Shown: piece by piece, positions 28,125 to 54,308 of the stretch
Position numbering within the stretch: position 1 is the stretch's first letter
Layout: every line of letters begins with the position of its first letter
NCBI GenBank assembly: GCA_003697105.1
Contig: RFFQ01000013.1
Location: 1 to 64,000 of the forward strand
Length of the DNA: 64,000 bases
Source: Gemmatimonadota bacterium
GTDB lineage: Bacteria > 4572-55 > J002
Direction of reading: 5' to 3'
Program-made: the position numbers and the translations under genes
The notes under the pieces: generated by a model
The model's input: only the letters and a program-made list of their open reading frames with translations
Told to the model about the DNA's origin: nothing
The model's database searches: none

Positions 28125-28226
28125 TCCCCCACGAAATCCTTGATTTTAGACCGGCATATCGGTTATGATAAGCTCACTTCAACCCCCACGGCATTAATTC
28201 TTTCCGCATTCAATCCGGAGGCATTC

Positions 28227-29747
28227 ATGAAGATTGCATTTGTGAATATCGGCGGCAGTATGTTTACCTTTCACAACGGTATTGCCGCCCTTTCTGCATA
28301 TATCAAGCACCATAGTGAGCATGAGGTCGCTCTGATCGATATGATTGGCCATCCGCGCCCTCTCAAATTTCAGCATCAGGTGGAGATCATCCAGCCCGAT
28401 GTAATCGCCTTTACCGCCATGACCATATACTGGCCCAATGTACGGGCATTAGCAACGCGGGCAAAGCAAATGAGTTCTGCTAAGACGATTGTGGGAGGAT
28501 ACCATCCGACGTTTGCCCCTGAAGAGTGTATTTCTCATCCGGCGATGGACGTCATTTGCCGGGGAGAAGGCGAGGAAGCCCTACTTGCCTTTCTGAATGC
28601 CCTAGAACGCGGAGAAGATTATACCCGAATTCCAAATCTATGGGTCAAAAAAGATGGAAATTTATATAAAAATGATATTCGTCCGCTGATCGCAAACATG
28701 GATGAGTTACCCTTCTGGGATCGGGACTTATTCAACTATGGTTCGTGGTATGATGCCATGCCAACATCACTCTCTGATTTAGACCGCCCGGAACGGACGG
28801 TCACCCTTGCCGCAAGCCGGGGATGCTACTATGACTGCACCTATTGTAGCAATGAGCCACTGAAAGCGATGTACGGCGGGAAAACATTCGTTCGTACCCG
28901 TTCCGTCGATCATATTATCAAAGAAATGAAGATGCTAAAAGCACGGTACAATCCCGACCTGTTTGAATTTCAGGAAGAGCTGTTTGTGGCACATCTGGAT
29001 TGGCTAGAAGAATTTGCCGATAAATACAAACGTGAAATTGGGCTTCCTTTTAACATTTCATACCGCGAGGAGTTAGCCCGAACCAAAAATATGGAACTTC
29101 TGGCAAAAGCCGGCTGTAACAGCATTGCATTTGGGGTTGAGTGCGGTAGTGAGGAATATCGTAAGAAATATCTGACCCGCCGCATGTCGAATCGAAAAAT
29201 TGAGGAAGCATTTGATCGCACCCACGAACTGGGCATGAAAGCCCTCTCCTTCAACATCATCGGTATGCCGTTTGAGACATACGATCTGATTCAAGAGACC
29301 ATCCAACTCAACCGGCGGTTACAAGCAGATTACCTGCAATGGTTTATTTACCAACCCTACCCCGGAACCATTTTGTATAATATCTGTAAAGAGAATGACT
29401 TGCTGTTGCCCGGCTACACGTCATCTTATATTTCCCTGCGACCGGGCATCAAATTGACCCACATCACCCGCGAGGAATTCCAGCAGTGCATGGAAGATTT
29501 TATGGCACTGCAACGTGAACAACAAGGTTATGACTGGCTCGACATCGCCGCCCAATCCAATGAAACCTTGGTCAATGTCCGCTATGCCACCGAGGAAGAA
29601 CGGTATGACATAATGGATTTATATAATCAGACCTTTCAGCGGGATCATGGGATAAACCGGTGGGAGTGGTTCCGCCGGAACCCAGAAGGCGCAGAAAAAA
29701 CCCCGTCGCCATCTCCAACCGGCAGAACGTCGTCGGAGCCCAGGTGA
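28227..29747 (+). CDS. B12-binding radical SAM protein (class B methylase-like); the C-terminus begins a GNAT domain that continues in another frame
   Basis: GGAGG RBS; 'VGGYHPT', 'RGEGE', 'ASRGCYYDCTYC' (CxxxCxxC), 'GVECGSE', 'PYPGT'. Confidence 0.88.
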   Translation: MKIAFVNIGGSMFTFHNGIAALSAYIKHHSEHEVALIDMIGHPRPLKFQHQVEIIQPDVIAFTAMTIYWPNVRALATRAKQMSSAKTIVGGYHPTFAPEECISHPAMDVICRGEGEEALLAFLNALERGEDYTRIPNLWVKKDGNLYKNDIRPLIANMDELPFWDRDLFNYGSWYDAMPTSLSDLDRPERTVTLAASRGCYYDCTYCSNEPLKAMYGGKTFVRTRSVDHIIKEMKMLKARYNPDLFEFQEELFVAHLDWLEEFADKYKREIGLPFNISYREELARTKNMELLAKAGCNSIAFGVECGSEEYRKKYLTRRMSNRKIEEAFDRTHELGMKALSFNIIGMPFETYDLIQETIQLNRRLQADYLQWFIYQPYPGTILYNICKENDLLLPGYTSSYISLRPGIKLTHITREEFQQCMEDFMALQREQQGYDWLDIAAQSNETLVNVRYATEEERYDIMDLYNQTFQRDHGINRWEWFRRNPEGAEKTPSPSPTGRTSSEPR

Positions 29748-30574
29748 TGCTACCGGTGCGCTTTTCGTTTCAGGGTAAAGAACTCAAAGGCATTCATGCG
29801 ATTGATTATAAAATGGATGTGGTTTTCCCGGGTGAAATACCGCCGCTGGATGGCTTTCAGTCCCGATACGATATCGCATACCGGATCAATATCCCATACC
29901 AGCGCCCCGAACTGGGCTATTTTAAGCGACGCAACGAACGATGGGATAAAGTGAAGTTAGTCAACTACACCGACCAACCGGTAACACCCATCAATCGACT
30001 CAAAAAAGAGATAAAACCCACCCGCCGCTCGCTCTCCCAAAAAGTGCGCCACCGGTTCGATAAATGGCGCTACCCAGTCCAGCAAATCGATCAATTTGAT
30101 GAGAGAGCGGATCGCTTGTGGGAGCGGTGCAAATCGGACTTCGGTCTGGCAATTGTGCGGGATGCTCGTTATCTGAACTGGCGTTACGTGGATTGTCCAG
30201 ATGTCAGTTATCTTAAAATCGGGGTCTTCAGTCCATCTGGAGCAGAATTAAACGGGTGGGCGGTGTTACGTTTGGATGGGATTCATCCCCAGACGGCATG
30301 TTTGGTGGATTGGCTTGTGCCCAATGCGGAAACGGGTATTGCCGAAATTTTGCGGCGCAACGTCGAGCATTCAACCCGGCTCGGCGGCGCTCAATTTTTG
30401 GAGGTCTGTTTTCCAGAAGGTTCTGTACCGGATCGATTGTTCCGGGCACACGGGTACCAACCGGCGCCGGCACCCGCAACGTTGATGGTACATGTTTTCA
30501 ACCCAGATAGAGTGGCAACAGACACGCTACAAAAGACGTGGTACTACACCTTGGGCGACTCCGAGATGTACTAA
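29695..30574 (+). pseudogene. Out-of-frame continuation (GNAT/FemAB-like acyltransferase domains) of the radical SAM gene
   Basis: 'VAISNRQNVVGAQVMLPVRF', 'RDARYLNWRY..P', 'WYYTLGDSE'; no convincing own start; junction at the A6C4 run 29695-29704. Confidence 0.65.
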
Positions 30575-30658
30575 ACCCATCCCGGCAATTTGTTCGCCGG
30601 GTTATTTTTTCCACCAGTTTGAACGCATATTTTTAAGCATCAAACACCCGATTTCAGA

Positions 30659-30687
30659 TTGACAGGTCGATTCCATTCGGTTACATT
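30659..30687 (+). promoter_or_regulatory. Sigma70-type promoter
   Basis: TTGACA-17 bp-TACATT upstream of the hybrid kinase. Confidence 0.65.
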
Positions 30688-30768
30688 GGCTTCCAGATAC
30701 TTCAACTCCGGCTCAAACACCGGTGGGTTAGGAAAAGGACTCCAAAATAAAGGGATTTTTACAGCTTC

Positions 30769-31908: not shown

Positions 31909-33285
31909 ATGAATCCATTAATTGAACCCTTCAAAATCAAAGTGGTCGAACCGATCAAAATGACAACCCGTGCCCAACGGGAGCGATTGATCAAAAAAGC
32001 GTATTATAATTTATTTTTTCTCCATTCCAACGATATTATGATCGATATGCTTACGGATAGCGGCACGTCCGCCATGAGCGACGCCCAATGGGCAGGCATC
32101 ATGGGCGGTGATGAAGCTTACGCCGGTAGCCGCAGTTTTGAGCGCTTTGAACAGGTAGTTAAAGACCTAACGGGATACCGTCACATTATCCCCACCCATC
32201 AGGGACGTGCCGCCGAAAAAATCTTGTTTTCCTCAATTGTCAAAAAAGCGGGGGGAGTAATCCCTAACAACACCCATTTTGATACCACCCGGGCAAACGT
32301 CGAATATACCGGCACAACCGCAGAAGATTTGGTCATTGATGAGGGGCATGATCCCGCGTCAACCTATCCTTTCAAAGGGAATATGGACTTAAAAAAACTC
32401 AAAGCCTGCATCGAAAAAGCGGGTCCAGAAAACGTACCGGTTGTGATGATGACGGTCACCAACAATTCCGGTGGTGGGCAACCAGTTTCGATGGAAAATC
32501 TGCGTGCGGTTCGGGACATGGCGCATTCCTATGGTATCCCGTTCTTTTTGGATGCCTGCCGTTTTGCCGAAAATGCGTACTTCATCAAACAACGAGAAAA
32601 AGGATACGCCGATAAAACAATTCGTGAGATCGCCCATGAAATGTTCTCGTACAGTGATGGTTGTACCATGAGCGCCAAAAAGGACGGTTTGGCAAATATC
32701 GGCGGATTTTTGGGGATTAATGATGATGTGCTGGCACAGGATTGCCGCAATTTGCTAATTCTTACCGAAGGATTCCCAACCTACGGCGGCCTTGCCGGGC
32801 GCGATCTGGAAGCCATTGCTCAAGGATTGGATGAGGTCTTGGAAGAAGATTATCTCCGGTTCCGGATTGGGCAAGTCGCCTATCTAGGTGACCAATTAAC
32901 GAAAATGGGGGTGCCGATCATGCAACCACCCGGCGGACATGCTATTTACGTGGATGCCAAATCCTTTTTGCCCCATATTCCAGTAAATCAATTTCCGGGA
33001 CAAGCACTAACAGTAGAACTTTATCTGGAAGCAGGGATTCGCGGTGTCGAGATTGGGAGCGTGATGTTTGGTAAAAAAGACCCCGAAACCGGTACCGAAA
33101 TTCCGGCGGCGTTGGAATTGGTACGTTTAGCCGTACCGCGCCGGGTGTACACCCAAAGCCACATTGATTATGTCGCCGATGCATTTGTACGGATCAACGA
33201 ACGAAAAAAGACCATCCGTGGTTATAAATTTGTGTACGAAGCCCCGTTTTTACGCCATTTTACTGCACGTTTTGAGCGTGTATAG
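31909..33285 (+). CDS. tnaA: Tryptophanase (tryptophan indole-lyase)
   Basis: 'LTDSGT', 'GDEAY', 'HQGRAAE', PLP Lys in 'SAKKD'; 'VEIGS' and 'LRHFT' match tryptophanase rather than tyrosine phenol-lyase. Confidence 0.9.
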   Translation: MNPLIEPFKIKVVEPIKMTTRAQRERLIKKAYYNLFFLHSNDIMIDMLTDSGTSAMSDAQWAGIMGGDEAYAGSRSFERFEQVVKDLTGYRHIIPTHQGRAAEKILFSSIVKKAGGVIPNNTHFDTTRANVEYTGTTAEDLVIDEGHDPASTYPFKGNMDLKKLKACIEKAGPENVPVVMMTVTNNSGGGQPVSMENLRAVRDMAHSYGIPFFLDACRFAENAYFIKQREKGYADKTIREIAHEMFSYSDGCTMSAKKDGLANIGGFLGINDDVLAQDCRNLLILTEGFPTYGGLAGRDLEAIAQGLDEVLEEDYLRFRIGQVAYLGDQLTKMGVPIMQPPGGHAIYVDAKSFLPHIPVNQFPGQALTVELYLEAGIRGVEIGSVMFGKKDPETGTEIPAALELVRLAVPRRVYTQSHIDYVADAFVRINERKKTIRGYKFVYEAPFLRHFTARFERV

Positions 33286-33318
33286 CCCACAATACCTCGT
33301 GATAATTTTGTGATATGT

Positions 33319-33368
33319 ACCCGCTATGTTTACCCAATATAAGATTCTCCCCGCGAAACATAGCGGGT
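33319..33368. repeat. 13-bp perfect inverted repeat with 24-nt spacer
   Basis: ACCCGCTATGTTT...AAACATAGCGGGT between tnaA and the downstream promoter. Confidence 0.75.
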
Positions 33369-33378
33369 TAAAAAGATA

Positions 33379-33407
33379 TTGACATATCCATATGTTTCCT
33401 ATATAAT
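33379..33407 (+). promoter_or_regulatory. Perfect consensus sigma70 promoter of the Omp28/TlpA cluster
   Basis: TTGACA (33379-84), 17 bp, TATAAT (33402-07). Confidence 0.9.
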
Positions 33408-33519
33408 CGGCACACTCCCCTAGAAAACCCCTATGTCTATCTCTTACACTTATTATACACCAGATACAATTACCCCATTTTCTATTTAGTGGACATATTC
33501 CCTTTTGGAGGTTTCCAAA

Positions 33520-35148
33520 ATGCTTATTTATATACCGAGGGTTCTGTTTTCGGCAATTCTGATGGCGACTACCCTATTATGTTTAGGAAGTTGCGATGAT
33601 AGCGACAATATGCCCGAACCCCTTTCGATTCAATTCCTTTCTCCGGCAAATGATGCCGTTCTTCGGGAAGATAGGATTGAAGTTCAGATTAACGCTTCAG
33701 CCAACCATGCAGATGCCCGTATCGATAAGGTCGAACTATTTGCGGGAAATCAGCAGGTTGCAACCACAACGGAAGTCCAGACCAATCCTGCCATCGTCAC
33801 CCTGGAGTGGGACGTCTCCAATTTGCCCAACGCCACTTACGAATTAGAAGCAAAAGTCTATGATAACCGCGGTAACACCAAAAGCAGTCAAATCCAGGTT
33901 CAACTCCACCGACAATTAAGAGTTCAAATTACCTCACCGCAAGATGGGCAGATTATCAACAGCAACCAGATACCGGTAACGGTTACGATTAAAACGATTG
34001 CCGCTGATATTGTTGAAGCCATCTTAACGGTTGATGGTGCGGCGGTGGTCACAAAAACCCAAGCACCTTGGGAGTTTACTTGGGATACGGCAGGCTACCC
34101 CCTCAATCAGGAGTACCATCTTCAGGTGACAATTGAAGATGCCGATGGAAACACAGCCCAATCGAATGTCGTGACCATCTGCGTGGGGTGTGAAATCCCA
34201 CCCTTGAGTTTGGCAATCATTTCCCCTCAGGCGGGTGAACAAATTGAAGCCAATCAGATTTCCGTTTCTGGAACGGTAACCAGTAACATTGGGCGAGCCA
34301 TTGAGCGGGTCACTTTGATAGTGAATGATAGCCCGGTGGCAGAGCGCAACCAAGCGCCGTGGGAATTCATCTGGGATACCACCAGCTATCCCGATAGTAC
34401 CACCTGTACCCTTTTCATCGAAGCTGAAGATGAGCAGGGCAATGTGGCACAATCCGAACCGGTGACCGTCTGTGTGCGCTGTGTGGAGCAATTTAGCCGG
34501 CAGCGGGTGGTTGTTCAGGAACAATTTACCGGCGCATGGTGCCAAAACTGTCTGCTTTATGCCGATCCGGCGGCAGATGCGCTGGCAGAAGAATTTGGAC
34601 CCACCCAATTGCTCTCGGTACATTACCATATCCGGGCAGGTTTGTTTGATGATTTTGAAATCGCGGAAGGTGTGGCACGGCTGAACTACTATGCCTTGAA
34701 CAACAGCCTACCCCATGCGGTCTTTGATGGCAGTGTCGTTATTACCGGCGGAGACCCCAGTACAGAAGACGTTTACCGGCAACAAATCAATACCCAATTG
34801 GCAGATGAGCCACCCGTCGGTATTCTGTTGACCGGCACGTTGGGCGCCGGAGAAATAACGGCAAAGATCAAAGCATTTGAACAACTCGCCAATCCCGGTC
34901 TAACCGTTCAATTTGTGATTACGGAGAGTGACTTAACTCACCCCAGCCCCCCGATTCATTTTAACTATGTTGTGCGAGATATGTTGCCCCCCGCCTCGAT
35001 CACCTTACCCAATGAAGGTGATCAAACGGAAGTAAGTCGTTCTTTCGTGTTAGATGACAGTTGGAATATGGATGAAATTCAACTCGTGGTGTTTGTTCAA
35101 GATGATAACACCAAAGTTATTTTACAGGGTCAAGCTATATGGGAATAA
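33520..35148 (+). CDS. Lipoprotein with three Big-type Ig domains and a C-terminal Omp28-like thioredoxin-fold domain (CQNC)
   Basis: GGAGG RBS, lipobox LGS-C; three 'I.SP..G...WDT' Ig repeats; 'EQFTGAWCQNC', 'NYVVRDML', 'WNMDEIQLVVFVQD'. Confidence 0.85.
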   Translation: MLIYIPRVLFSAILMATTLLCLGSCDDSDNMPEPLSIQFLSPANDAVLREDRIEVQINASANHADARIDKVELFAGNQQVATTTEVQTNPAIVTLEWDVSNLPNATYELEAKVYDNRGNTKSSQIQVQLHRQLRVQITSPQDGQIINSNQIPVTVTIKTIAADIVEAILTVDGAAVVTKTQAPWEFTWDTAGYPLNQEYHLQVTIEDADGNTAQSNVVTICVGCEIPPLSLAIISPQAGEQIEANQISVSGTVTSNIGRAIERVTLIVNDSPVAERNQAPWEFIWDTTSYPDSTTCTLFIEAEDEQGNVAQSEPVTVCVRCVEQFSRQRVVVQEQFTGAWCQNCLLYADPAADALAEEFGPTQLLSVHYHIRAGLFDDFEIAEGVARLNYYALNNSLPHAVFDGSVVITGGDPSTEDVYRQQINTQLADEPPVGILLTGTLGAGEITAKIKAFEQLANPGLTVQFVITESDLTHPSPPIHFNYVVRDMLPPASITLPNEGDQTEVSRSFVLDDSWNMDEIQLVVFVQDDNTKVILQGQAIWE

Positions 35149-35178
35149 TCTCAACTTTTATCGATGGAGGAAGTACTG

Positions 35179-35721
35179 ATGAAATCAATTTTTAAGTTAA
35201 GTGCCTGTATTGTGTTGGCAATAACATTTGTTGCCGGAACGGCGATGAGTGCCGAAACGCGCGAATACCAAAAACTACCGGCATTTAGTACCAAAGATTT
35301 AAGTGGTAAACTCGTCAGTTTTGATGATGTCAAAGGTGAAAAAGCCACTTACATCACGTTTTGGGCAACGTGGTGCAAACCGTGCATGGCAGAATTGCCT
35401 CACTTGCAAGAGCTGTACGAGAAATATCAAGAGCAAGGATTGCAAATCATTGGTATGAATGAAGATACCGCCAAGAAAACCGCCAAGGTCAAAAAAGCCG
35501 TTAATCAGAAAAAGCTATCATACCCAATTTTGTTAGACCCAACAGCAGAAGTGGGTAAAAAGTTAGGGATGCCTACAGAGTTACCCTACGGCTTGCTCAT
35601 CGACGGTAACGGAAATATTATTGAAAAAACCATCGGATTTCAAAAAGGCGATGAGGATGCGTTAGAAAAGAAGATCGTTAAACTATTGGGGCTTGAAACC
35701 AGTACGGAGGAATCAAATTGA
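35179..35721 (+). CDS. Exported TlpA/ResA-family thiol-disulfide reductase
   Basis: GGAGG RBS, signal peptide, 'FWATWCKPCMAELP', 'LPYGLLID'. Confidence 0.93.
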   Translation: MKSIFKLSACIVLAITFVAGTAMSAETREYQKLPAFSTKDLSGKLVSFDDVKGEKATYITFWATWCKPCMAELPHLQELYEKYQEQGLQIIGMNEDTAKKTAKVKKAVNQKKLSYPILLDPTAEVGKKLGMPTELPYGLLIDGNGNIIEKTIGFQKGDEDALEKKIVKLLGLETSTEESN

Positions 35722-37364
35722 AACCGCAAATAGCAATCAGTCTCGTCGCGATGGGATTGATGTTGTTGGTTAAGATTCCCACCGCCGGAAGTATTGATCT
35801 TAATTATTCATTTTACAATAATGTGCAATATTCGTTATTTGAAGCGTCGGAGCGCGACAGTCTTGTAGAACGCGCGGAAGTCAATCTTCAAATAGGGTTG
35901 TTGCGTACCGGCATGTTGCTGGAAGCGCGTCAACCTTTACCTAAAGTAGGAGATGCGGAACAAGGCTTTGGTCCCGTCAACGTGCGAAAACTGTTTTTTG
36001 AATTAGAAAAAGATGGGTTTTCGCTCCGTGCCGGAGATTTTCCGGTCTTATTTGGACGTGGATTATCGATCAACCTATTTCGAGATGATGCATTGCGTCA
36101 GGATACCGAACCGGAAGGCATCAAACTTGGCTACCGGAATGATTATGTTCAGGCAACGGCATTCAGCGGGTATGTGGAAAAATTTGTCGGACCCGTTTCC
36201 ACAAATGATGTCAGTTATGAAGTAGATGATACCCGGCAACATCTCTTTCGAGGTGCGGCATCTACGTTTCGTCCATTTACCAATACGGATTCTCCCTTAC
36301 AACCTTTAGAACTGGGGGTGCAATATGTCCGGTTTCGCTCCATCGAAGCCTATCCGTTCCCCCAAGAAACGCGGCGTTACGAAGACCGCCGTACAATGAC
36401 GGGAGGGAGTCTCTTCTATAGCGGTGATTTTTTTGATATTTACGGCGAATACGTCACCGGTAAGCGCATTGAAAACGAACTGTATCCCGATGGAAAAGCA
36501 AAGTTCACCATTGCCGAATACGATACCATCCAAGGAATATACGGCGTTATCAACGCCTTTTGGGGTGATTTTTCGCTTTTTGGCGAATTTAAGGATTATC
36601 AAGGGCTGGGCTTTTTTGATGCCTCCGGTAATTACTCCAAACCGATTGGACAGCTACAATCTCCTGCAAAACCGTACAACAATCCACCGCCCGTTGTCAC
36701 AGAGCATACCAGCCGGTTACTCGGTCGGGATATGTACCAGCCGATCATCCTCAATAACGAACGCGGGTATCGTGTGGAATTAGAGTGGACACCCACCTAT
36801 TCCACCCAGATTTTAGTCGATTATACCCGCGCAGAAAGTCGTGAAGGAGACCTCTATTTTCAGGAATATTACCTTGAATTTGAGCATTCTATTTGGGATG
36901 ATAACCTTTCGTTCATGGGCATGATCGAGCAAGGTGACGTGGGGGAAAAGGCAGACCGCACAGGCGGTTGGCTGAAAACCACGTACCAATTAAATGATAA
37001 ACAATCGATTGCCCTCACGACAGAATACATGGATGGTACGGTCAAAAACGTGGCAGATGAAGTCGGTCAATATTATGTTTTCAGTTTTTCGCAGTCCAAA
37101 GATACACATGAGAACGACTCGTTTTGGCGGGCGCTTCTGAAACGGTCGTGGACCCTCTCCGCCGCGTATGAGCTTAGTAGTGAAGCCGATCAGGATGGGA
37201 AAGATAATTGGTTTTCCTTAGCGATGGATTATAAAGTTTCAGATAATCATCTAGTACGGTTATTCTACGGTGCACGTCGAGCGGGTCTGAACTGCAACGG
37301 AGCAATTTGTGTCCCCGAACCGGCATTTGAAGGCTTCGAATGTCAATTAATTAGCGTGTTTTAA
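35718..37364 (+). CDS. Outer-membrane beta-barrel, DUF6029-like, with C-terminal CxxxxC
   Basis: TTGA overlap with TlpA; signal peptide; 'AGDFPVLFGRGL'; amphipathic beta strands; 'YGARRAGLNCNGAICVPEPAFEGF'; terminal Phe. Confidence 0.75.
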   Translation: MKPQIAISLVAMGLMLLVKIPTAGSIDLNYSFYNNVQYSLFEASERDSLVERAEVNLQIGLLRTGMLLEARQPLPKVGDAEQGFGPVNVRKLFFELEKDGFSLRAGDFPVLFGRGLSINLFRDDALRQDTEPEGIKLGYRNDYVQATAFSGYVEKFVGPVSTNDVSYEVDDTRQHLFRGAASTFRPFTNTDSPLQPLELGVQYVRFRSIEAYPFPQETRRYEDRRTMTGGSLFYSGDFFDIYGEYVTGKRIENELYPDGKAKFTIAEYDTIQGIYGVINAFWGDFSLFGEFKDYQGLGFFDASGNYSKPIGQLQSPAKPYNNPPPVVTEHTSRLLGRDMYQPIILNNERGYRVELEWTPTYSTQILVDYTRAESREGDLYFQEYYLEFEHSIWDDNLSFMGMIEQGDVGEKADRTGGWLKTTYQLNDKQSIALTTEYMDGTVKNVADEVGQYYVFSFSQSKDTHENDSFWRALLKRSWTLSAAYELSSEADQDGKDNWFSLAMDYKVSDNHLVRLFYGARRAGLNCNGAICVPEPAFEGFECQLISVF

Positions 37365-37378
37365 TCAGGGAGGTACTA

Positions 37379-39394
37379 ATGAAAAAAAGGATATTATTAA
37401 CGGTTTTGATATTCGGAATAGCAGTTTCCGGATGGGCGGATATTCCAAAACTCGGCGTTATTGAGCAGTTCACCACAGTGGGAAATGAGTTGTGCGAAGA
37501 GTCCAATCTGTACGTTCAACAATTGAAGGAACATTACGGGGTCAAAAACGCCGTGGTGATTCAATATCACGTGGGAGATAATGACCCATTTTACCAAGCA
37601 AACCACACGGATAACGACGCCCGGGCAGAATATTACGGCGTTGAATATCTGCCAATGGTTGCTACCTCAGGCAATAGCATGGTGCAAGCCACCGATCCAT
37701 ACGATATAAACGTCAAAATGGATAAAGTGTTAGAAACAGATACCCCACTTTATATGAGTGTATTCCATGAAATTGAGGGATCAACGCTCTCGGTAGAAGG
37801 CTCGGTAGTTGCCGCCGGCGAGATAGATGGCACATATAATTTACAAATCGCCGTCATCGAAAAAGAAGTGACAGAAGGAGGCATGACATATTATAATGTG
37901 ATGCGTAAACTTTTACCAGATGGCGCGGGTACTGATTTTTACATCGCCTCTGGGGGAGACGACGCTTATTATGAGTTCTCGCAATCGCTGCAAATCGACG
38001 CCGGCTGGGATACCGATCAATTAGAAGTGATCGTTTTTGTCCAAGACCCAGCAACGCAAGGTATTTTGCAAGCGGTCACCACAGAACTGGTTGAGGCAAC
38101 ACCCTCCCCACACCATATCCGGCTGGTGTCCGAACAACGTGTCCGAATTTTACCCGTGAATACTTTTTTGGAAAATCACTATATGCGCTTCATCAATATG
38201 ATGGACCAAGATGACCAGTTTGACTTTTTGCTGGAAACAGATATGCCGGAAGGTTGGGTGGCGTCTTTTTGTGTGGGACCCATTTGCTTACCGGATTCCG
38301 CACGTATTGCGTTTGAGGCGGGACAATCCGAGGGACAACCCGAAGATGATGGACGACACATGTATGTAACCATCACACCGATGAACACACCCGGCGTCGG
38401 CGATGTCATCTTTACGGCACGCTCCGTAACCTACCCTTCGGTACAGCAATCACTTCATTTCCGGGTCATCACCGATGGTATTGATGTGCTAATCGTCGAT
38501 GCGGATGGTGGTCTGGATAGTGAACAGGGCATTGCCAGCGCTTTGGAGCGCGCAGAAGTTACCTATGGCATCTGGAAAGCATCCACACCCATCACCGGTG
38601 CCGAAATGGCGAATTTCCCGGTGGTCATCTGGAATACCGGTCGGGCATTACCCACATTGCTGGAATCTGACCGAGCCGCCATCCAAGAGTATATGGATAA
38701 CCTCGGCTCGATCCTGATCAGTGGGCAAAATATTGGTTGGGATTTAACCAATGCCGCCAGCCGTAATCGCGATCCGGAATTCTATAGTGGTGTGCTTCAT
38801 GCCAATTTCATCAATGATAATGCATCCAGCATGGCAGTAACGGGTGTTGGGTTTGCGGAAGGTCTGGCATTTAATCTGGTCGATCAAACCTCGCCGGATG
38901 TGGTGGAACCCGTCGATGATAACACCTTTGACCTATACCAATATGGCGAAAGTGAAGTTGCCGGATTGTACACGGGAGCGATGGTCTATCTAGGGTTCGA
39001 TCCGGCACAAATTGATAGTGACGATCAGCGTGACTGGACCATCGCACGTATTTTGAATTACTTTAATTTGGCGGTTGGTGCGGGACCGGTGACCACAGGC
39101 ATCACCCAAACGCCACCAGCCGTAACTCTCCACCAAAATGTGCCGAATCCATTCAATCCCACAACACGTATTCGGTACGAATTACCGCAAAGTAGCACCG
39201 TGAAGCTTACCATTTATGATGTCACCGGACGGTTGGTGCGCACGTTGGTCAACCAACCCCAAGAAAGTGGCATTTATGATGTCCAATGGAATGGTCATGA
39301 TGATGCCGGTCACGTCGTGAATAGCGGCATCTATGTTTATCAATTGGAAACTGAAACGGCGACGCAGACTCAAAAAATGATGTTGTTGAAATAA
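37379..39394 (+). CDS. Secreted Omp28-like protein, paralog 1 (NxxC, first Cys absent) with FlgD-Ig/T9SS-type CTD
   Basis: GGAGG RBS, signal peptide; 'EQFTTVGNELC', 'NDPFY', 'NVMRKLLP', 'VFVQD'; internal CVGPIC; 'NVPNPFNP'. Confidence 0.85.
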   Translation: MKKRILLTVLIFGIAVSGWADIPKLGVIEQFTTVGNELCEESNLYVQQLKEHYGVKNAVVIQYHVGDNDPFYQANHTDNDARAEYYGVEYLPMVATSGNSMVQATDPYDINVKMDKVLETDTPLYMSVFHEIEGSTLSVEGSVVAAGEIDGTYNLQIAVIEKEVTEGGMTYYNVMRKLLPDGAGTDFYIASGGDDAYYEFSQSLQIDAGWDTDQLEVIVFVQDPATQGILQAVTTELVEATPSPHHIRLVSEQRVRILPVNTFLENHYMRFINMMDQDDQFDFLLETDMPEGWVASFCVGPICLPDSARIAFEAGQSEGQPEDDGRHMYVTITPMNTPGVGDVIFTARSVTYPSVQQSLHFRVITDGIDVLIVDADGGLDSEQGIASALERAEVTYGIWKASTPITGAEMANFPVVIWNTGRALPTLLESDRAAIQEYMDNLGSILISGQNIGWDLTNAASRNRDPEFYSGVLHANFINDNASSMAVTGVGFAEGLAFNLVDQTSPDVVEPVDDNTFDLYQYGESEVAGLYTGAMVYLGFDPAQIDSDDQRDWTIARILNYFNLAVGAGPVTTGITQTPPAVTLHQNVPNPFNPTTRIRYELPQSSTVKLTIYDVTGRLVRTLVNQPQESGIYDVQWNGHDDAGHVVNSGIYVYQLETETATQTQKMMLLK

Positions 39395-39400
39395 ATCCCC

Positions 39401-39435
39401 AGCCCGGTACGGGTATCCGTATCGGGCTTATTTTT
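39401..39435 (+). terminator. Terminator-like hairpin between paralogs 1 and 2
   Basis: AGCCCGGTACGG-GTAT-CCGTATCGGGCT followed by TATTTTT. Confidence 0.7.
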
Positions 39436-39466
39436 ATCCACCTTCGGTTGGAAGGAGATTGTACCA

Positions 39467-41443
39467 ATGCGTAAATTGTTTTTAGTATTGTTAGCTCTGG
39501 CTTTTTTGATGCCGGTACGCGGTATGGCGGTAGAACGCACCGTACTGGCAGAATTACAAACAGCAACGTGGTGAGTGTACTGTCCTTGGGCTGAAGCAGC
39601 CATCGATCAGTTGATCGAGGAATACGGTACCGATAACGTCGTTTATATTGCCTATCACTATACTGACGAACTGGAAATCGCCGAAGGAAGTGCACGCTGG
39701 GCATCCTATTATGGCAATGAAGGTACGCCTAATATGTACTTTGACGGGCTCCAAAATGTGTTAGGCGGTTGGGAAGGCTGTTATGACGCTTATCTTGCTG
39801 AATTGCAATCCCGCTGGGCAAACAGTAGCCCGATTCGCCTCGAACTCATCGGGGGAATTGTGGATACGGAAGGATATATCTCGGCAAATGTTACATTAGA
39901 AGGGGACATTCCCGCCGGTATGACCGTCCGCTTTGCCGTTATAGAAAATGATATTATCCTAAATCGCCACTATAATGGGGTATTACGAGACTTACTGGCA
40001 GAAGAAACGCTCAGCATCAGCCAGCAAGGCGAAACGGTTACGTTGGATCGCACCTTCCCCGTAGAAGAGGGTTGGAATTACGAAAATATGGGCGTGGTTG
40101 TATTTGTCCAAAATGATAACACCCACGAAGTCCTTCAAGCCGCTTATTTTGACGCTTCAGATTCTGAATATCTGGTGAGCTTTACGTCCAGCGGCACCGT
40201 TGCGATTTCAGAAGCAGACCAACCCTATGATTTTTATGCCTTGGTGGAGAATGTCGGTCCGAATGACGATACTTACACCATTACAATGAATACCGATGAA
40301 TTACCCGAAGGGTGGAACGCCACGTTTACCATCGGCGAAGACGTGTACGAATCCGAAGCCGAAATTGATCTGGCGTCAGGGGAACAGGTACTTCTCACTA
40401 TCAATTATAATCCGAATAACGTACCCGGTCAGGGCGATGTTTATTTAGAATTAGTCTCCCACGCCGAACCGCGCCTGCAAAAATCAATGAGTTTTCGGCT
40501 GATCTCCGATGTGGAAGTCCTGATTGTGGATGACGCCCTCAATACCGATGCCACCCTGTATGAAACGGTGCTAACCGAAGATGAAACGATATGGGGCACG
40601 TGGGAAGTCCTCCGGGGAGGCAACATTGATAGTGATGAAATTGCGAATATCCCCACCGTGTTATGGATAACCGGTAGCGACGATCGTGAAACCATCACCG
40701 AAGACGATCAAATGGAATTGATCACCTATCTGGAAAACGGCGGATCATTGCTCCTAACCGGTCACAATATCGGGGGCGATATTGCCGCAACTGAATTTTA
40801 CACCGATTTTCTGGGCGCCCGTTATCGTTTCAATAACTTCGGACAAACCACCCTGAACGGGATCGAAGGCAACCCGATTGGCGATGGGTTAGTCCTCGAA
40901 ATTGAACACGATTCCCCAGATGTGGTCATGATGCAGGACGATGTGGATGGTCTGGAACCGGTCTTCCAATATGGAGCAGTGCCCAACCTCTACGCGGCAC
41001 TCGCACATGCGGCAGATACGTACCGGACGGTCTATTTTTCTGTGAGTCTGGATCAAGTATCCGATCCAGACAGCCGGGAAAGTGCCCTATTGCGCTCCTT
41101 GCGCTGGTTGAGAGGCGAATCCACGAACATCGACCCGGTGGAGCAAACATCAATTGCCACCGTCTCACATTACCAACTGGCACAGAATGTACCGAACCCA
41201 TTTAACCCCCGAACCACAATTGCCTATGCGTTGCCGGAACAAAGTCGTGTCAGTATCCATATTTACAACTCTTCCGGTCAATTGATACGAACTCTGGTCA
41301 ATAAGACGCAGAATGCCGGCACATATCACGTCCAGTGGGACGGTACAGATAGTGAACATCACGAAGTCGCCAGTGGGATTTATCTGTATAAACTCGTGAC
41401 AGACAAAGAAACACACATTAAATCAATGGTATTACTCCGGTAA
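39467..41443 (+). CDS. Putative secreted selenoprotein, Omp28-like paralog 2 (UxxC; TGA 39572-39574 = residue 36), 658 aa, FlgD-Ig/T9SS-type CTD
   Basis: GAAGGAG RBS, ATG 39467, MRKLFLVLLALAFLMPVRGMA-VERTVLAELQTATW-TGA-VYCPW in frame with ORF 39575..41443; aligns to EQFTGAWCQNC. Confidence 0.88.
39589..39618 (+). promoter_or_regulatory. Candidate bacterial SECIS element for TGA 39572
   Basis: GGCTG-AAG-CAGCC (39589-39601), loop about 19-22 nt after TGA; adjacent hairpin TCGATC-AGTT-GATCGA (39603-39618). Confidence 0.55.
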
Positions 41444-41465
41444 CCAAGCGGGCATAATCGGGTGA

Positions 41466-41497
41466 AACCCTTAGCATCTACAAAGGTGCTAAGGGTT
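41466..41497. terminator. Intergenic stem-loop between paralogs 2 and 3
   Basis: AACCCTTAGCATCT-ACAA-AGGTGCTAAGGGTT; no U tract. Confidence 0.6.
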
Positions 41498-41549
41498 CAA
41501 TCCCAACAGAACACTCCATACCAAAAGCCCATTCATGAGGAGATTACCG

Positions 41550-43550
41550 ATGAGGCAAATTTTATGGACAAGTGTGGTTTGGTCATTTATTGCCGTCTCC
41601 GCATTTGCAACGGAACGGGTGGTCTTAATGGAAATGTTTACCAGCACCACCTGACCGGTTTGTCCCACTGCGGAGCAGTGGCTTGATAACTGGTATCCTA
41701 GCAATTACGATGACGTGGCAATTATCCGTTACCACATGAATTGGCCCGCCCCCGGGAATGACCCCTTTTATCACGCCAACCCGCTAGAAAACAACGCCCG
41801 GCGAGGGGTTTACGGCGTCAACGGCATACCGGACATGTTTGTGGATGGCGTTTTAAATCCAGGCATACCCTACAGTACCGCCGTCAACCAACGGTTGGAG
41901 ATACCTAGCCCGTTGGAAATCAATGTGGATGGAACATTTGATTGGACTACCAATGAAGGCACCACTACGGTGGAAATCACAGCAACAGAAGACTTCTCTT
42001 ATAATTCATTGCGGATGCAATACGTGATTATTGAAAATAATGTAGCATACACCGGTCCAAACGGACATACACCCCACCATCAGGTGATGCACGATATGGT
42101 ACCAACAGCTTCGGGCGAAAGTTTTGAGATTACAAATGGAGAAACCCTCCTATTCAACCGGAATTTCGTCATTGATGAAAGCTGGGATGCGAATGAATGT
42201 GAGATTGTTGTTTTTGTGCAGGATAATACGAGCCGTGAAGTCTTTCAAGCAATGCATATGTCGCTTGATGAACTGTTTCCTATCCGCCTCCGCTTTGAAA
42301 CAAGCGGCAATACGGCACTGGGTGCGTCCGATGGTGAGTATCCGTTTTACGCCCTCATCGAAAATCAAGACAACCAAGCAGATGTATTTGATGTTGAATT
42401 GACAACCTCTGCACCCGAGGCGTGGTCGATCAATTTTACGCTGGAAGGAGTCACCTACGAGGATGGGGCAGAACTCCCCCTCGATGCCGGTGAAGAAGTG
42501 CCCTTAACCGTGAATATCAGCCCCAATAGCACCGCCGGTGAAGGTTTTGCCACGGTCACCCTCACCTCCCAATCCGAACCACGGGTGGTAAAATCTCTGA
42601 CCTTCCAACTCATTACCAATGATGTAGATGTGCTCGTGATTGACGATGCCAATGATGGTAATATTGAACCGTATCGCGCCGCACTGGAAACAACCGATTT
42701 TGTCTTTGGCGCCTGGGATGTCGCGGTGGGAGGCGCTCTAAATCCAGAGGATCTAGAACAGATTACGACCCTCATCTGGTTTACCGGCGGTGAAGAAGAG
42801 ACCGCTTTAGAACCCGATGAAATCGAGATGTTGACCGGTTACCTCGATAACGGCGGGCAACTGATGCTCTCGGGGCGAAATTTGGGCGTTGCGATTGGCA
42901 CAACAGATTTTTATACTGAATATCTCGGTGCCCATTTCCGGTTCAACAACTTCAGCACCTATGAGGTGAATGGGATTGAAGGCGACCCCATCGGGGATGG
43001 TATCTCCTTCACATTTGAGCAGGATTCCCCAGATGTCGTCCTCCCCCGTCCCGGAGTGGATGGCGTGTCACCGGTTTTTCAATATGGCGATATTCCGCTG
43101 TATGCGGCACTACGGCACGAGACCGAAACCTACCGCACGGTGTACTATTCGATCAGCTTGGAAGGCGTCAATGAAGCCGATGCCCTCGCCCAGCTCATCG
43201 AAAATTCGGTTCTCTGGTTACAAGGGGAAGAAACAGCAATTGAGCCACAAAAAAGTGATGTGGCACGTGTAACTGCCTATCAATTATTTCAAAATGTACC
43301 GAATCCATTCAATCCTCAAACTCAAATTGAATATGCGGTGCCGGTACCTGCAACAGTTCAGTTGAATATCTATTCCGTGACAGGACAATTCATCAAAACG
43401 CTTGTACATCGTCCGCAAAGTGCCGGACACTATCGTGTGATATGGGATGGTACCAACCAGTTTGGAGCTGCCGTAGCCAGCGGAATTTATCTGTATGAAC
43501 TATCGGCTGGGGAACACCGGCTCACCCGTCAGATGGTTCTACTCCATTAA
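41550..43550 (+). CDS. Putative secreted selenoprotein, Omp28-like paralog 3 (UxxC; TGA 41652-41654 = residue 35), 666 aa, FlgD-Ig/T9SS-type CTD
   Basis: GAGGAG RBS, ATG 41550, MRQILWTSVVWSFIAVSAFA-TERVVLMEMFTSTT-TGA-PVCPTAEQWLDNWYP in frame with ORF 41715..43550; next gene reads EMFTSTTCPPC. Confidence 0.92.
41665..41681 (+). promoter_or_regulatory. Candidate bacterial SECIS element for TGA 41652
   Basis: Perfect 7-bp stem CCACTGC-GGA-GCAGTGG starting 11 nt after TGA, with G at the start of the loop. Confidence 0.7.
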
Positions 43551-43621
43551 TCTCACTGGCGAAACCTCAAGGAAGGAGGCTTCGTCTATTTTCCCAACCT
43601 ATGTTTTAAGGAGGTTTTACG

Positions 43622-45709
43622 ATGCGTAAAACACTATTTATGGTTTTAATATTAATACTAATGGTTACGCTTTTCGTACCCAATGTACACGCGGAACGAA
43701 TCGTACTGTTGGAGATGTTTACCAGTACCACCTGCCCACCGTGTGTATCCGCCAATGCGGCGATGAATACGTGGTATCCTGACAACGATGATATTTCGGC
43801 ATTGATTCGCTACCATGTTTGGTGGCCCTCACCGGGCAATGACCCGTTCTATCTGGCAAACACGGCAGAAGCCCAAGCCCGCACCAATTATTACGGGGTA
43901 AATGGGGTGCCCGACATCTTTGCAGATGGACTTTTGGACGCCAGTTTCCCTCCCATTTCTCAGGTTGCTCAACGTCGCGCGGTAGACCCGCCAGTGGATA
44001 TTATGGTTGCCGGCAGCTATGACGTTGATAATAACGTTGGTGAGGCAACTATTACTGTCTCCGCGCTGGAAGACTTCAATTACAATGACCTCCGCTTTTT
44101 CTTCGTTATTACGGAAGATAATTGTGTGTACACTGGTACAAACGGGGATCCGGTACACCATCAGGTGATGCGCGACATGGTGCCAAATGCCAACGGCGAA
44201 AGTTTTGATATTGCCGATGGTGAATCGGTCGTGTTTACCCGATCCTTCTCGCTATCACCCGTACCGGGTGTAAATGAGACCGGAATTCCTGAAAATACAA
44301 ACGTCGTGTGCTGGGTTCAAGATGTAGCAACAAATTCCAGAGAAGTACATCAGGCCGCTTGGGTACCCCTAATGGAACTCGTCCCAGCCGCCGCTATTGA
44401 AGGATATGTCACCGACTGTGCCAATGAGGAAGGCTTGGATGTGACGAATGTCTATGTGGAAGGCACGGGATATGCCACCATCACCGATGAAAATGGATTT
44501 TACCATCTCAATGCCGAACCGGGCACGCACACGGTCGTTTTTGAGCGGTTCGGGTATGTCACACACACCCAAGAAGTCACCTTAGCCGAAGATGATCTAC
44601 TGCCCGTAGATGTCTGTCTGAATGCGTTCGGGCAATCCACGTTAACCGGAACGGTTTCACAGCGGGAAAATGGTAATCCAATTCCAAATGCACCCATTGA
44701 ACTGCTCGGTGTACCAATTAATTCCACCGTAACGGATGAAAACGGGGTCTATACGTTCAGTGTTCCGGGTGGTTACACCTACGAGGTTTCGGTCTATGCA
44801 GATGATCGCGAACCGGTTGTAGAAAGCGTTACCGTACCTGAAAATGAAGTGGTAGAGCACAACTTCCCGATGCGCTTTGTTCAAAGTTTTGAAGCAACCG
44901 ATGGTGGCTTTGATCCCAACCGCCTGTGGGAGTGGGGCGATGCCAACGCAGGTGGTGGCGCTGAAACGGCCTATTTGGGGATGAAGTACTGGTCAACCAA
45001 TATCGACGGTGCATATCCCAGTAATCAACGTGCCGATCTGGTGACACCCGAATATAGCCTGACCCAAGCCAACGCCGCCGATTTATTCTATGCCCACTGG
45101 CTCGATACCAACGAGGGATGGGACGGCTATAATCTTTCCATCAGCACTAACGGCGGCGATGACTGGGTCCGGATCGAACCGGAAGGAGGCTATCCCGGCA
45201 GTGTGATCGGATTATCGGGACAACCTGGCTTCTCCAGTGATAGCAACGTATGGGAGATGGTACATTATGATCTGACCGACTATCTCGGCGAAGTGGTTCA
45301 ATTCCGATTCCGTTTCGGTAGTACCAACAACAACCGGAATTACTTAGGGGTTTGCATTGACTATTTTGATCTCCAAACGGATGTGGAAACGGCGGTAGAT
45401 GAGCCACAAATGACGGGTATTGCCATTCCACAAGCCCTGACACTGAGCCAAAATGTCCCCAACCCGTTCAACCCCAATACGAAAATCCATTTTGCCTTGC
45501 CCCAAACCCAACATATTAATGTCGCCATTTATGCCCTGAATGGACAGTTGGTAAAAACATTGCAAAATGGTGTTCTTTCGGCAGGGGATTACACCGTTAC
45601 TTGGAATGGTACCAATGAGCAAGGCGTACCGGTAGCCAGCGGAACATACATCTACCGCTTGGAAAGCAACGCTGAAATCCTCAGCAAAACCATGGTCTTG
45701 TTGAAGTAA
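43622..45709 (+). CDS. Secreted Omp28-like paralog 4 (CPPC) with two carboxypeptidase-regulatory-like domains, a jelly-roll domain and FlgD-Ig/T9SS-type CTD
   Basis: AAGGAGG RBS, signal peptide; 'EMFTSTTCPPC', 'WPSPGNDPFY', 'HQVMRDM'; two 'TDENG.Y' repeats; 'NVPNPFNP'. Confidence 0.9.
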   Translation: MRKTLFMVLILILMVTLFVPNVHAERIVLLEMFTSTTCPPCVSANAAMNTWYPDNDDISALIRYHVWWPSPGNDPFYLANTAEAQARTNYYGVNGVPDIFADGLLDASFPPISQVAQRRAVDPPVDIMVAGSYDVDNNVGEATITVSALEDFNYNDLRFFFVITEDNCVYTGTNGDPVHHQVMRDMVPNANGESFDIADGESVVFTRSFSLSPVPGVNETGIPENTNVVCWVQDVATNSREVHQAAWVPLMELVPAAAIEGYVTDCANEEGLDVTNVYVEGTGYATITDENGFYHLNAEPGTHTVVFERFGYVTHTQEVTLAEDDLLPVDVCLNAFGQSTLTGTVSQRENGNPIPNAPIELLGVPINSTVTDENGVYTFSVPGGYTYEVSVYADDREPVVESVTVPENEVVEHNFPMRFVQSFEATDGGFDPNRLWEWGDANAGGGAETAYLGMKYWSTNIDGAYPSNQRADLVTPEYSLTQANAADLFYAHWLDTNEGWDGYNLSISTNGGDDWVRIEPEGGYPGSVIGLSGQPGFSSDSNVWEMVHYDLTDYLGEVVQFRFRFGSTNNNRNYLGVCIDYFDLQTDVETAVDEPQMTGIAIPQALTLSQNVPNPFNPNTKIHFALPQTQHINVAIYALNGQLVKTLQNGVLSAGDYTVTWNGTNEQGVPVASGTYIYRLESNAEILSKTMVLLK

Positions 45710-45769
45710 CGATTCGTCTCCTCCATGCCTAAATCCGAGCGATTTGGCATGGTTCACTCTATTGATTGG

Positions 45770-45804
45770 AAACCGCCACTGCTCAGATGAATAGTGGCGG
45801 TTTT
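45770..45804 (+). terminator. Terminator at the end of the Omp28 cluster
   Basis: AAACCGCCACT-N12-AGTGGCGGTTTT; a second hairpin lies at about 45723-45752. Confidence 0.65.
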
Positions 45805-45820
45805 ACCATTTATGGACAAT

Positions 45821-46570
45821 ATGAAGCGCATTACACCTCACGGTGACCGGCTTGACCGGCTACTGGTAACTTTGCAACTCACCGAATCCCGCCACCGCGC
45901 CCAACAATTGATTCAAAAAGGTGCGATTCGGGTCAACGGGGAGATTATTACCAAAAACAGTGCTCCAATTGCGGAAGGAGCCATTATCGAGGTGCTCCAG
46001 TCCTTATCCTATGTCAGCCGGGCGGGTTACAAATTAGAACATGCGCTCCGGCAGTTTAAGGTAGATGTCGCTGGGTTCATTTGCCTCGATATTGGCGCCT
46101 CCACCGGTGGATTTACAGACTGCTTGCTACAACACGGTGCAAATCGGGTTTATGCGGTTGATGTAGGAAGTAATCAACTTCACCAAACACTTAGACCAAA
46201 TCCACGTGTGATTTCCATGGAAAAAACCGATCTGCGCACATTACCCACCCTACCGGAACCGGTGGATTTGATAGTGATCGATGTTAGTTTTATTTCGCTC
46301 AGCTTGATCTTCCCGCATTTGGCTCGATTTTCTCATGACAAAAGCCGGATCATCAGTTTGATTAAACCCCAATTTGAGGTGGGCAAAGGTCATCTTAATA
46401 AACGAGGAATTGTCCGCCGGACAGAAGACCGCCAACGGGTACTTCAAACGGTAGTACACCATGCTGAAAGTCACGGATGGCACTGCTTACAACAAACCGA
46501 ATCCCCCATCGCCGGTGGGGACGGAAATATAGAGTATTTGGCATTATTTTGCCTTGAATCACCTCAATAG
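45821..46570 (+). CDS. tlyA: TlyA family rRNA (cytidine-2'-O)-methyltransferase
   Basis: S4 domain 'RLDRLL...SRHRAQQLI', 'YVSRAGYKL', 'DIGASTGGFTD', 'DVSFISL', 'KPQFE'; start uncertain (45812 or 45821). Confidence 0.95.
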   Translation: MKRITPHGDRLDRLLVTLQLTESRHRAQQLIQKGAIRVNGEIITKNSAPIAEGAIIEVLQSLSYVSRAGYKLEHALRQFKVDVAGFICLDIGASTGGFTDCLLQHGANRVYAVDVGSNQLHQTLRPNPRVISMEKTDLRTLPTLPEPVDLIVIDVSFISLSLIFPHLARFSHDKSRIISLIKPQFEVGKGHLNKRGIVRRTEDRQRVLQTVVHHAESHGWHCLQQTESPIAGGDGNIEYLALFCLESPQ

Positions 46571-54268: not shown

Positions 54269-54308
54269 ATTTATTATCGGATATATTTAATAGTCGATAG
54301 TTTAGTCC

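Follow-up and report, generated by a model that had tools for sequence, protein, structure and literature searches.

Cascades that reduce disulfides by thiol exchange, in which an inner-membrane protein of the CcdA or DsbD type serves TlpA, ResA or DsbE, end in the periplasm in every case known to us. How thioredoxins that are anchored at the cell surface by type IX secretion (T9SS), such as HBP35, are re-reduced there is, to our knowledge, an open question. Porin-cytochrome conduits of the MtrCAB type combine a large barrel, a periplasmic carrier inserted into it and a lipoprotein at the surface. The cluster described here has a comparable layout. It consists of seven genes, g1 to g7, in a stretch of 64,000 nucleotides from a Gemmatimonadota bacterium (assembly GCA_003697105.1, contig RFFQ01000013.1, positions 1 to 64,000; hereafter the window). 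Its conserved core would comprise g1, a surface lipoprotein of the Omp28/HBP35 type, together with a TlpA-type reductase of the periplasm (g2) and a DUF6029 barrel of the outer membrane (g3); further Omp28 domains are encoded by g4 to g7. We tentatively read the cluster, at a little short of an even chance, as a thiol/selenol-disulfide exchange system that forms a relay across the outer membrane.

Conservation of the core genes

Genomes representing GTDB species were scanned with an alignment of five DUF6029 sequences, which gave 26 loci in metagenome-assembled genomes of Ignavibacteria, Zixibacteria, Calditrichia, Gemmatimonadetes, Rhodothermaceae, Delongbacteria and Eisenbacteria. These loci were searched as six-frame translations with purpose-built hidden Markov models. 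A preliminary description of the window had stated that TlpA, DUF6029 and Omp28 genes occur together, and this proved to be so. Immediately 5' of DUF6029 and on the same strand, 24 of the 26 loci have a TlpA-like open reading frame (ORF), mostly with CKPC, and Omp28 domains are encoded on the same strand in 18. The two loci without TlpA have short upstream sequence (322 nt in L011 and 748 nt in L024, where the upstream ORF has a CxxC and no detectable match), and seven of the eight loci without Omp28 have less than 3 kb upstream. The bare operon of Omp28 lipoprotein, TlpA and DUF6029, in the order of g1, g2 and g3, is found in L009, L018, L021 and L025, and g1 holds the position in the window that the lipoprotein gene holds in the related loci.

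The link between the reductase and the barrel is closer still in four natural fusions, in which a Redoxin domain precedes DUF6029 in a single protein (P0010, P0066, P0075 and P0094). The last three come from the best 150 of the 2198 representatives of the DUF6029 family (E <= 0.001; clusters at 50% identity). These observations bear on a very improbable alternative, in which DUF6029 would be a polysaccharide-export porin and its linkage to TlpA and Omp28 would be without redox meaning. In the literature that we searched, DUF6029 is named in two papers only; one is a study of outer-membrane polysaccharide export (OPX) proteins, which states that Wzi-barrel-like proteins near OPX genes have strong HHpred similarity to DUF6029 (PMC9603273). 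No polysaccharide-export domain was present among the 57 same-strand neighbour ORFs selected for a Pfam scan from the 313 ORFs of the loci. A porin of this kind would also leave the adjacency of TlpA in 24 of 26 loci, the four fusions and a conserved cysteine pair in the barrel unexplained.

Thioredoxin-fold Omp28 domains and selenocysteine

An alignment of 33 Omp28 domains, five from the window and 28 from the related loci, agrees with the earlier proposal that they have thioredoxin folds. The first position of the active site is C or U in 32 of them, the exception being Asn in g4, while the second Cys and a Pro at the thioredoxin cis-Pro position occur in all 33. Four of the window proteins exceed the cut-off of 34.9 bits for the Pfam model PF11551 (g1, 35.1; g4, 38.4; g5, 36.5; g6, 58.9); g7, with 31.9 bits, falls below it, yet its whole domain aligns with the other Omp28 domains. 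The AlphaFold2 (AF2) model of the g6 domain has a beta-alpha-beta core at a predicted local distance difference test (pLDDT) of 94.6. Its top Foldseek match in the PDB, and thus the closest solved structure, is HBP35 (5y1a; E 9.8e-15, query-based template-modelling score, TMq, 0.82, 18% identity), followed by the DUF1223 protein 2axo and by 2r2c, a domain from Omp28 itself.

HBP35 of Porphyromonas gingivalis is described in PMC2907840 as a T9SS surface protein with thioredoxin activity, the recombinant form of which reduces insulin faster than Escherichia coli thioredoxin and requires C48 and C51 to do so. Because the best structural match is itself a surface protein and an insulin reductase, g4 to g7 are, judging by sequence and models, HBP35-like surface thioredoxins, and g1 is a lipoprotein version of the same.

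In g5 and g6, the attacking residue appears to be selenocysteine (Sec, U). Their in-frame TGA codons align with the first Cys of the CxxC in g1 and g7, and translating TGA as U gives both g5 (U36) and g6 (U40) their signal peptide, first beta strand and UxxC. TGA is also an ordinary stop here, as at the end of g2, so there is no global recoding. When the related loci were re-scanned for in-frame TGA, the codon was found exactly at the first-Cys position in eight of 29 Omp28 matches, with Cys in 20 and a contig end cutting one. The eight ORFs are distributed over five loci (three in L006, two in L016, and one each in L007, L008 and L020). With g5 and g6, ten TGA codons in six genomes share an alignment column with 22 Cys codons; the number of independent cases is below ten, since the Zixibacteria copies are related to one another.

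The RNA downstream of these codons differs as well. Stretches of 63 nt from the TGA codons (n = 10) fold more stably than those from the Cys codons (n = 22), with means of -17.9 and -12.0 kcal/mol (Mann-Whitney p 0.004; p 0.011 for shuffle z-scores). In folds judged by eye, a hairpin, which may be a selenocysteine insertion sequence (SECIS), begins 11-18 nt past the UGA at nine of the ten sites; in L008, the fold pairs the UGA itself instead. Rfam, run at gathering thresholds on the whole window, returned no match. The suggestion that two of the enzymes use selenium thus gains from the eight further TGA-for-Cys cases in five genomes and from the hairpins, and g5 and g6 may be taken as predicted selenoproteins.

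Selenocysteine also bears on an improbable reading in which the Omp28 domains would be DsbA-like oxidases or isomerases for surface or T9SS cargo, with TlpA and the barrel supplying isomerase-type reduction. Known thioredoxin-fold enzymes with Sec in place of Cys are typically reductases, the host taxa named for the 26 loci are presumably mostly sediment anaerobes, and the MAM and CarboxypepD_reg domains of g7 look like substrate binders; all three speak against a role in oxidative folding. The reading draws its support from HBP35, since earlier work cited in PMC2907840 had hbp35 complement an E. coli dsbA mutant.

The barrel, its cysteine hairpin and TlpA

The product of g3 matches DUF6029 (PF19494) with 71 bits against a cut-off of 27, its residues 22-548 covering profile positions 28-538. 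An AF2 model based on a 34-row alignment has about 24 strands (pLDDT 81.2; predicted TM score, pTM, 0.77), and the nearest solved folds, usher pores and TonB-dependent transporters, amount at a TM score of ~0.45 to a generic likeness among large barrels. Pfam gives neither a Plug domain nor a TonB box in g3. A search for longer homologous forms found none, and its run with the 34-row profile gave the same nine proteins again.

The barrel had been called Cys-tailed in the preliminary description. In the model, C526 and C531 form no tail; the loop that joins the last two strands holds them on a small beta hairpin. Because both termini of outer-membrane barrels are normally periplasmic, strand parity would make this hairpin the last extracellular loop. 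Its CxxxxC is present in every full-length homolog examined (nine of nine homologs, all 26 loci and 145 of the 149 best representatives, the remaining four being truncated at the C-terminus).

The g2 product scores above the cut-offs of the Pfam models AhpC-TSA (90.1 bits) and Redoxin (86.7 bits); its NCBIfam scores are 103.6 bits for ResA (cut-off 170) and 64.1 for TlpA (cut-off 230), and the WCxPC motif and an export signal are both present. Among 24 aligned TlpA sequences, C41, C44 and the cis-Pro are invariant.

When the barrel and TlpA were modelled together, the complex scored 0.73, compared with 0.00 for the best of three controls, in which both unrelated partners scored 0.00. A score this high was obtained for 116 of 157 solved complexes and for two of 215 mismatched pairs, counts that apply only roughly here because the alignments were purpose-made. 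Between the runs, at least 88% of contacts agree, and the partner pLDDT is at least 82. The model places TlpA as a plug in the lumen. On 22 of the 24 strands it contacts, in the periplasmic half, the alternating residues that face the lumen, and it also meets three inward-folded loops bearing the motifs most conserved in the family. These are residues 109-125 (LFGRGL), residues 322-331 (NNPP) and the cysteine hairpin (residues 524, 526, 528 and 530-532). The TlpA side of the predicted interface includes the cis-Pro loop and residues 40-44, which are WCKPC. Of the 15 invariant barrel columns, six lie in the interface (hypergeometric p 0.017). The enrichment fades once nearly invariant columns are added (nine of 38, p 0.11), and the TlpA side has no enrichment (four of 12 invariant residues, p 0.67). 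An exchange between TlpA and the barrel's cysteine pair had been postulated, with a prediction of the AlphaFold-multimer type as its check; both WCKPC and CxxxxC lie in the predicted interface, and the four fusions point the same way.

A plug-like TlpA could serve purposes other than sustained transfer. In one unlikely alternative, the cluster would be a maturation or export device, in which TlpA, tethered inside or beneath the barrel, merely keeps the Cys and Sec of the Omp28/HBP35-type proteins reduced during their passage through the periplasm and the barrel is their translocon or surface anchor, with no sustained flow after export. Co-conservation and fusions fit this equally well, the lipoprotein gene neighbours the barrel gene in the minimal operons, and a large barrel without a plug domain of its own resembles the usher-type translocation pores. 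However, the T9SS sorting tails of g4 to g7 indicate exit through the T9SS and not through the DUF6029 barrel, a costly selenocysteine in the active site points to repeated catalysis, and a pore leaves unexplained why all full-length barrels have the Cys hairpin and why it lies in the TlpA interface.

In another alternative, which we consider rather improbable, the surface proteins would bind or reduce a metal cofactor (heme, iron or copper), the TlpA-gated barrel would import it, and Cys and Sec would be ligands or reductants. TlpA acts on copper chaperones, and OprC, a copper transporter, is among the folds nearest to the barrel, as are siderophore receptors. HBP35 is reported to bind hemin and to be needed for growth under hemin limitation (PMC2907840), and for the T9SS and lipoprotein thioredoxins of Muribaculaceae, roles linked to iron are proposed in a preprint of 2026 (PMC13404670). 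The likeness to those barrels is nevertheless the generic one noted above, and g3 lacks the Plug domain and TonB box. No CxxCH heme motif occurs in the seven translations, and with it the multiheme pattern of porin-cytochrome (MtrCAB) systems is missing from them. Apart from one TonB-dependent-receptor-like ORF in L005, the 57 neighbour ORFs contain no metal- or heme-uptake genes, and the feoB and mntR-like genes of the window are 9-12 kb off on the opposite strand.

In the relay that we prefer, reducing equivalents would reach TlpA from an inner-membrane CcdA/DsbD-type protein encoded elsewhere. TlpA would sit plug-like in the lumen of the barrel, in its periplasmic half, and its WCKPC would there meet three loops folded inward from the outer side, the CxxxxC hairpin among them. 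From TlpA the order of transfer would be to the barrel hairpin and on to the thioredoxin-fold proteins of the surface, g1 and the T9SS-anchored g4 to g7; the hairpin may perhaps also exchange with the Cys-hairpin sandwich proteins described below. Outside the cell, the targets that these surface proteins reduce would be disulfides or another oxidised form of sulfur or selenium, and in g5 and g6 selenocysteine would be the attacking residue. Gene order, co-conservation, fusions, folds, the alignment of Sec with Cys and the docking of TlpA in the barrel are computational results, and the flow of electrons, its direction, the step from hairpin to Omp28 domain and the substrate are our inference. 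A relay along these lines was suggested in the preliminary description, and its co-occurrence, fold, selenocysteine and TlpA-barrel parts find support; transcription as one unit, which it included, is doubtful.

Several points weigh against the relay. The locus L012, with full 10-kb flanks, has TlpA and DUF6029 and no Omp28 domain. Neither the window nor the 57 neighbour ORFs contain a CcdA or DsbD gene, and ARAGORN and profile scans found no selA, selB, selC, selD or tRNA in the window. An invariant disulfide can be purely structural. The extracellular position of the hairpin follows from strand parity rather than from coordinates, and the Cys motifs of the complex were judged by membership of the interface and not by Cys-to-Cys distance. 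The complex score is the model's own confidence, which the solved plug-in-barrel folds of TonB-dependent transporters may bias. Finally, in anoxic sulfidic habitats, the medium itself might reduce surface thioredoxins, and a relay would be unneeded.

It is possible, although we think it doubtful on balance, that the cluster represents the first dedicated thiol/selenol reducing pathway across a Gram-negative outer membrane, composed of a TlpA-plugged DUF6029 barrel, its disulfide hairpin and the surface enzymes. Our literature searches found no paper on the re-reduction of surface T9SS thioredoxins; nor, with subscription journals and supplements outside their scope, did they find one that joins Omp28 and selenoprotein or one that treats TlpA, HBP35, Omp28, DUF6029 and DUF1223 as a system. 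The parts belong to known families, and the module, the TlpA-plugged barrel and the function of DUF6029 appear to be new. If the interpretation holds, it would provide a thiol counterpart of the porin-cytochrome conduits, assign a function to DUF6029 and its 2198 representative clusters, and explain the extracellular selenoproteins of anaerobic bacteria of the Fibrobacterota-Chlorobiota-Bacteroidota (FCB) group. A non-heme electron route across the outer membrane would also bear on protein degradation, oxidant defence and the sulfur and selenium chemistry of sediments.

Cluster layout, neighbouring genes and known systems

Much of the layout given in the preliminary description is borne out by the ORF list (Table 1). 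The seven genes are co-oriented, on the + strand from 33520 to 45709, the redox motifs assigned to them are all present in the translations, and each product begins with a hydrophobic, signal-like stretch as judged by eye. A consensus promoter had been placed before g1, and it is the sole 12/12 match among 28 promoter-like sites in 33000-46200. The terminator placed after g7 was also found, as a hairpin with a T run; it is absent from the list of a simple terminator scan and was detected by other folding tests. These end signals had been taken to bound a single unit, and that part does not stand so well. A strong hairpin and T run, overlooked before, directly follow g4 and make one transcript for all seven genes doubtful. 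The genes probably form two units, g1 to g4 and g5 to g7, or are coupled through read-through.

Table 1. Features of the cluster, of the rest of the window and of related loci (L numbers; positions within each locus).
Feature	Sequence	Positions	Strand	Description
Promoter-like site	window	33379..33407	+	Sigma-70-type, TTGACA-17-TATAAT, 12/12 consensus matches
g1	window	33520..35148	+	Lipoprotein; three Big_7 immunoglobulin-like (Ig) domains; C-terminal Omp28/HBP35-type thioredoxin-fold domain (34468-35136), CQNC
g2	window	35164..35721	+	Exported TlpA/ResA-like thiol:disulfide oxidoreductase (predicted), WCKPC
g3	window	35718..37364	+	DUF6029 outer-membrane beta barrel (predicted), ~24 strands, 548 residues
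g3 CxxxxC beta hairpin	window	37293..37310	+	Codons C526-C531 (CNGAIC)
g4	window	37379..39394	+	Omp28 domain (NELC, degenerate site), sandwich (CVGPIC, 38270-38287), middle domain, T9SS tail (39143-39382)
Terminator-like hairpin and T run	window	39401..39428	+	3' of g4; 12 bp, 8 GC, z -3.14
g5	window	39467..41443	+	Predicted selenoprotein (U36), UVYC; Omp28, beta sandwich, middle domain, T9SS tail (41192-41428)
g5 UGA and SECIS-like stem-loop	window	39572..39630	+	UGA 39572-39574, stem-loop downstream; -20.3 kcal/mol, z -2.32
g6	window	41535..43550	+	Predicted selenoprotein (U40), UPVC; g5-like architecture; FlgD_ig-type tail (43323-43508)
g6 UGA and SECIS-like stem-loop	window	41652..41694	+	UGA 41652-41654, stem-loop downstream; -20.3 kcal/mol, z -2.60
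g7	window	43622..45709	+	Omp28 (CPPC), two CarboxypepD_reg, InhA-like MAM, T9SS tail (45458-45697)
Terminator-like hairpin and T run	window	45770..45808	+	3' of g7; hairpin 45773-45800, z -5.05
T9SS-tail protein	window	6912-11054		1380 aa, glycosylhydrolase-like
T9SS-tail protein	window	19810-21099
GWxTD-domain proteins	window	15132-17930		Two, adjacent
B12-binding radical SAM	window	28140-29747
B12-binding radical SAM	L011	1777-3273		Directly after DUF6029
B12-binding radical SAM	L020	11254-12711		Directly after DUF6029
Omp28-type selenoproteins	L006	3917-7175		Following Fer4_5 gene
Omp28-type selenoprotein	L007	1403-4354		Following Fer4_5 gene
Omp28-type selenoprotein	L008	3264-4322		Following Fer4_5 gene
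Omp28-type selenoproteins	L016	5236-7397		Following Fer4_5 gene
PEGA-AhpC/TSA	L001	999-2027
PEGA-AhpC/TSA	L002	2-361		Fragment, AhpC-TSA only
PEGA-AhpC/TSA	L003	1210-2187
PEGA-AhpC/TSA	L006	8199-9227
PEGA-AhpC/TSA	L007	5440-6465
PEGA-AhpC/TSA	L008	5199-6218
PEGA-AhpC/TSA	L012	8175-9224
PEGA-AhpC/TSA	L016	8206-9243
Peptidase_S9	L009	11422-13356
Peptidase_S9	L018	3588-5495
Peptidase_S9	L021	11567-13153
Peptidase_S9	L023	1882-3792
Peptidase_S9	L025	11546-13459

The start codon of g1 is 7 nt past a GGAGG, and its product has the lipobox LGSC followed by an acidic stretch, DDSDN. That of g5 is preceded by the ribosome-binding site AGGAG, and ATG 41550 is an alternative possible start for g6. In g4 to g7, a signal-like peptide is followed by the Omp28 domain, and the C-terminal tails are of the FlgD_ig/Por_Secre_tail kind in Pfam. 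The T9SS tail model TIGR04183 (cut-off 23) scores 44.1 in g4, 35.6 in g5 and 30.1 in g7, and the tail of g6 matches FlgD_ig alone (42 bits against 27). No T9SS core genes are encoded in the window, and two further proteins with T9SS tails are. Past the cluster, the GTG start listed for a tlyA-like gene (45794-45812) overlaps the hairpin after g7, and ATG 45812 is therefore the likelier start. No ORF of at least 100 aa under table 11 is found at 29748-30768 or 54262-54940, and two adjacent GWxTD-domain proteins are encoded elsewhere in the window.

Between the sandwich and the T9SS tail of g4 is a conserved domain of ~220 aa (38480-39150), which recurs in g5 and g6 with the pattern DVLIVDD ... 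W.TG ... GG.L..SG.N.G. The sandwich and middle domain of g4 gave no match in a PDB sequence search or in Pfam at E 0.1. An Atlas search with the middle region gave leads that were all below 0.9; these were clusters with T9SS tails and a single cluster named "Omp28-related outer membrane protein".

The sandwich itself is shared with two recurrent neighbours in the related loci, a protein of ~240 aa with a T9SS tail (eight loci) and a membrane-anchored protein of ~190 aa (six Zixibacteria-type loci). A Cys pair in it is invariant in 14 of 14. As a protein of its own, the sandwich occurs in 14 loci; in the window it is fused into g4. By hhalign, this separate form and the module after the Omp28 domain of g4 to g6 are homologs (probability 98.9, E 2.7e-17). 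The CVGPIC of g4 matches the Cys pair of the separate form, and the sandwiches of g5 and g6 lack those Cys residues.

A Fer4_5 polyferredoxin-like membrane protein is encoded in the Zixibacteria-type loci L006, L007, L008 and L016, where the Omp28-type selenoproteins follow its gene and end in dockerin-like repeats, without T9SS tails. It is a possible alternative source of electrons in those loci. Just 5' of TlpA, eight Zixibacteria-type loci encode a second exported redoxin, with PEGA and AhpC/TSA domains and a CxxC, which has no counterpart in the window. A Peptidase_S9 gene (prolyl oligopeptidase family) comes after DUF6029 in five Ignavibacteria loci; the adjacency could be a sign of some link with protein degradation, or simply of shared ancestry. 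A B12-binding radical SAM protein was considered as a conserved part and rejected. The L011 and L020 copies share 63% identity; with the window copy, which lies 4 kb upstream of the cluster, their identity is only 24%.

Of the systems described so far, HBP35 (5y1a) is the closest to g4 to g7, with the same two-part fold of thioredoxin domain and beta sandwich, an N-terminal CxxC and a C-terminal sorting domain of the T9SS. The identity is only 18%, however, and the window has five paralogs, two of them with Sec and one with a degenerate site; additional middle domains and the linkage to TlpA and DUF6029 set these apart as well. The Omp28 family (PF11551, NF033782, NF045500) is similar in that the Pfam model matches, g1 is a lipoprotein and a curated selenoprotein model exists, so Sec in the Omp28 fold is already recognised and is not new. 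Scores against the equivalogs are much lower, at 45-66 against a cut-off of 200 for NF045500, the "Omp28-related selenoprotein" (g5, 66.3; g6, 60.2; g1, 45.8; g7, 45.1), and 30-51 bits against 150 for the Omp28 lipoprotein model NF033782. The window proteins are therefore distant relatives that lie outside those equivalogs.

The pathways from CcdA or DsbD to TlpA, ResA or DsbE resemble the cluster in that g2 is an exported WCxPC redoxin and a dithiol-disulfide cascade would run between thioredoxin folds. They differ in their periplasmic end, where a barrel acceptor and end proteins at the surface are proposed here, and in that the window cluster has no CcdA or DsbD gene of its own. With the MtrCAB conduits, the likeness is an analogy of layout only, in the gene order and logic of lipoprotein, carrier and barrel; the carriers of the window would be thiols and selenols, with no heme motifs and no sequence relation. 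TonB-dependent transporters and chaperone-usher pores have in common with g3 a barrel of 22-24 strands and a globular domain in the lumen, and the four fusions have their plug-like TlpA domain at the N-terminus, like the plug of the transporters. Their folds match g3 at no more than the generic level, and in place of a Plug domain with a TonB box, the plug of the DUF6029 barrel would be a separate protein with a thioredoxin fold.

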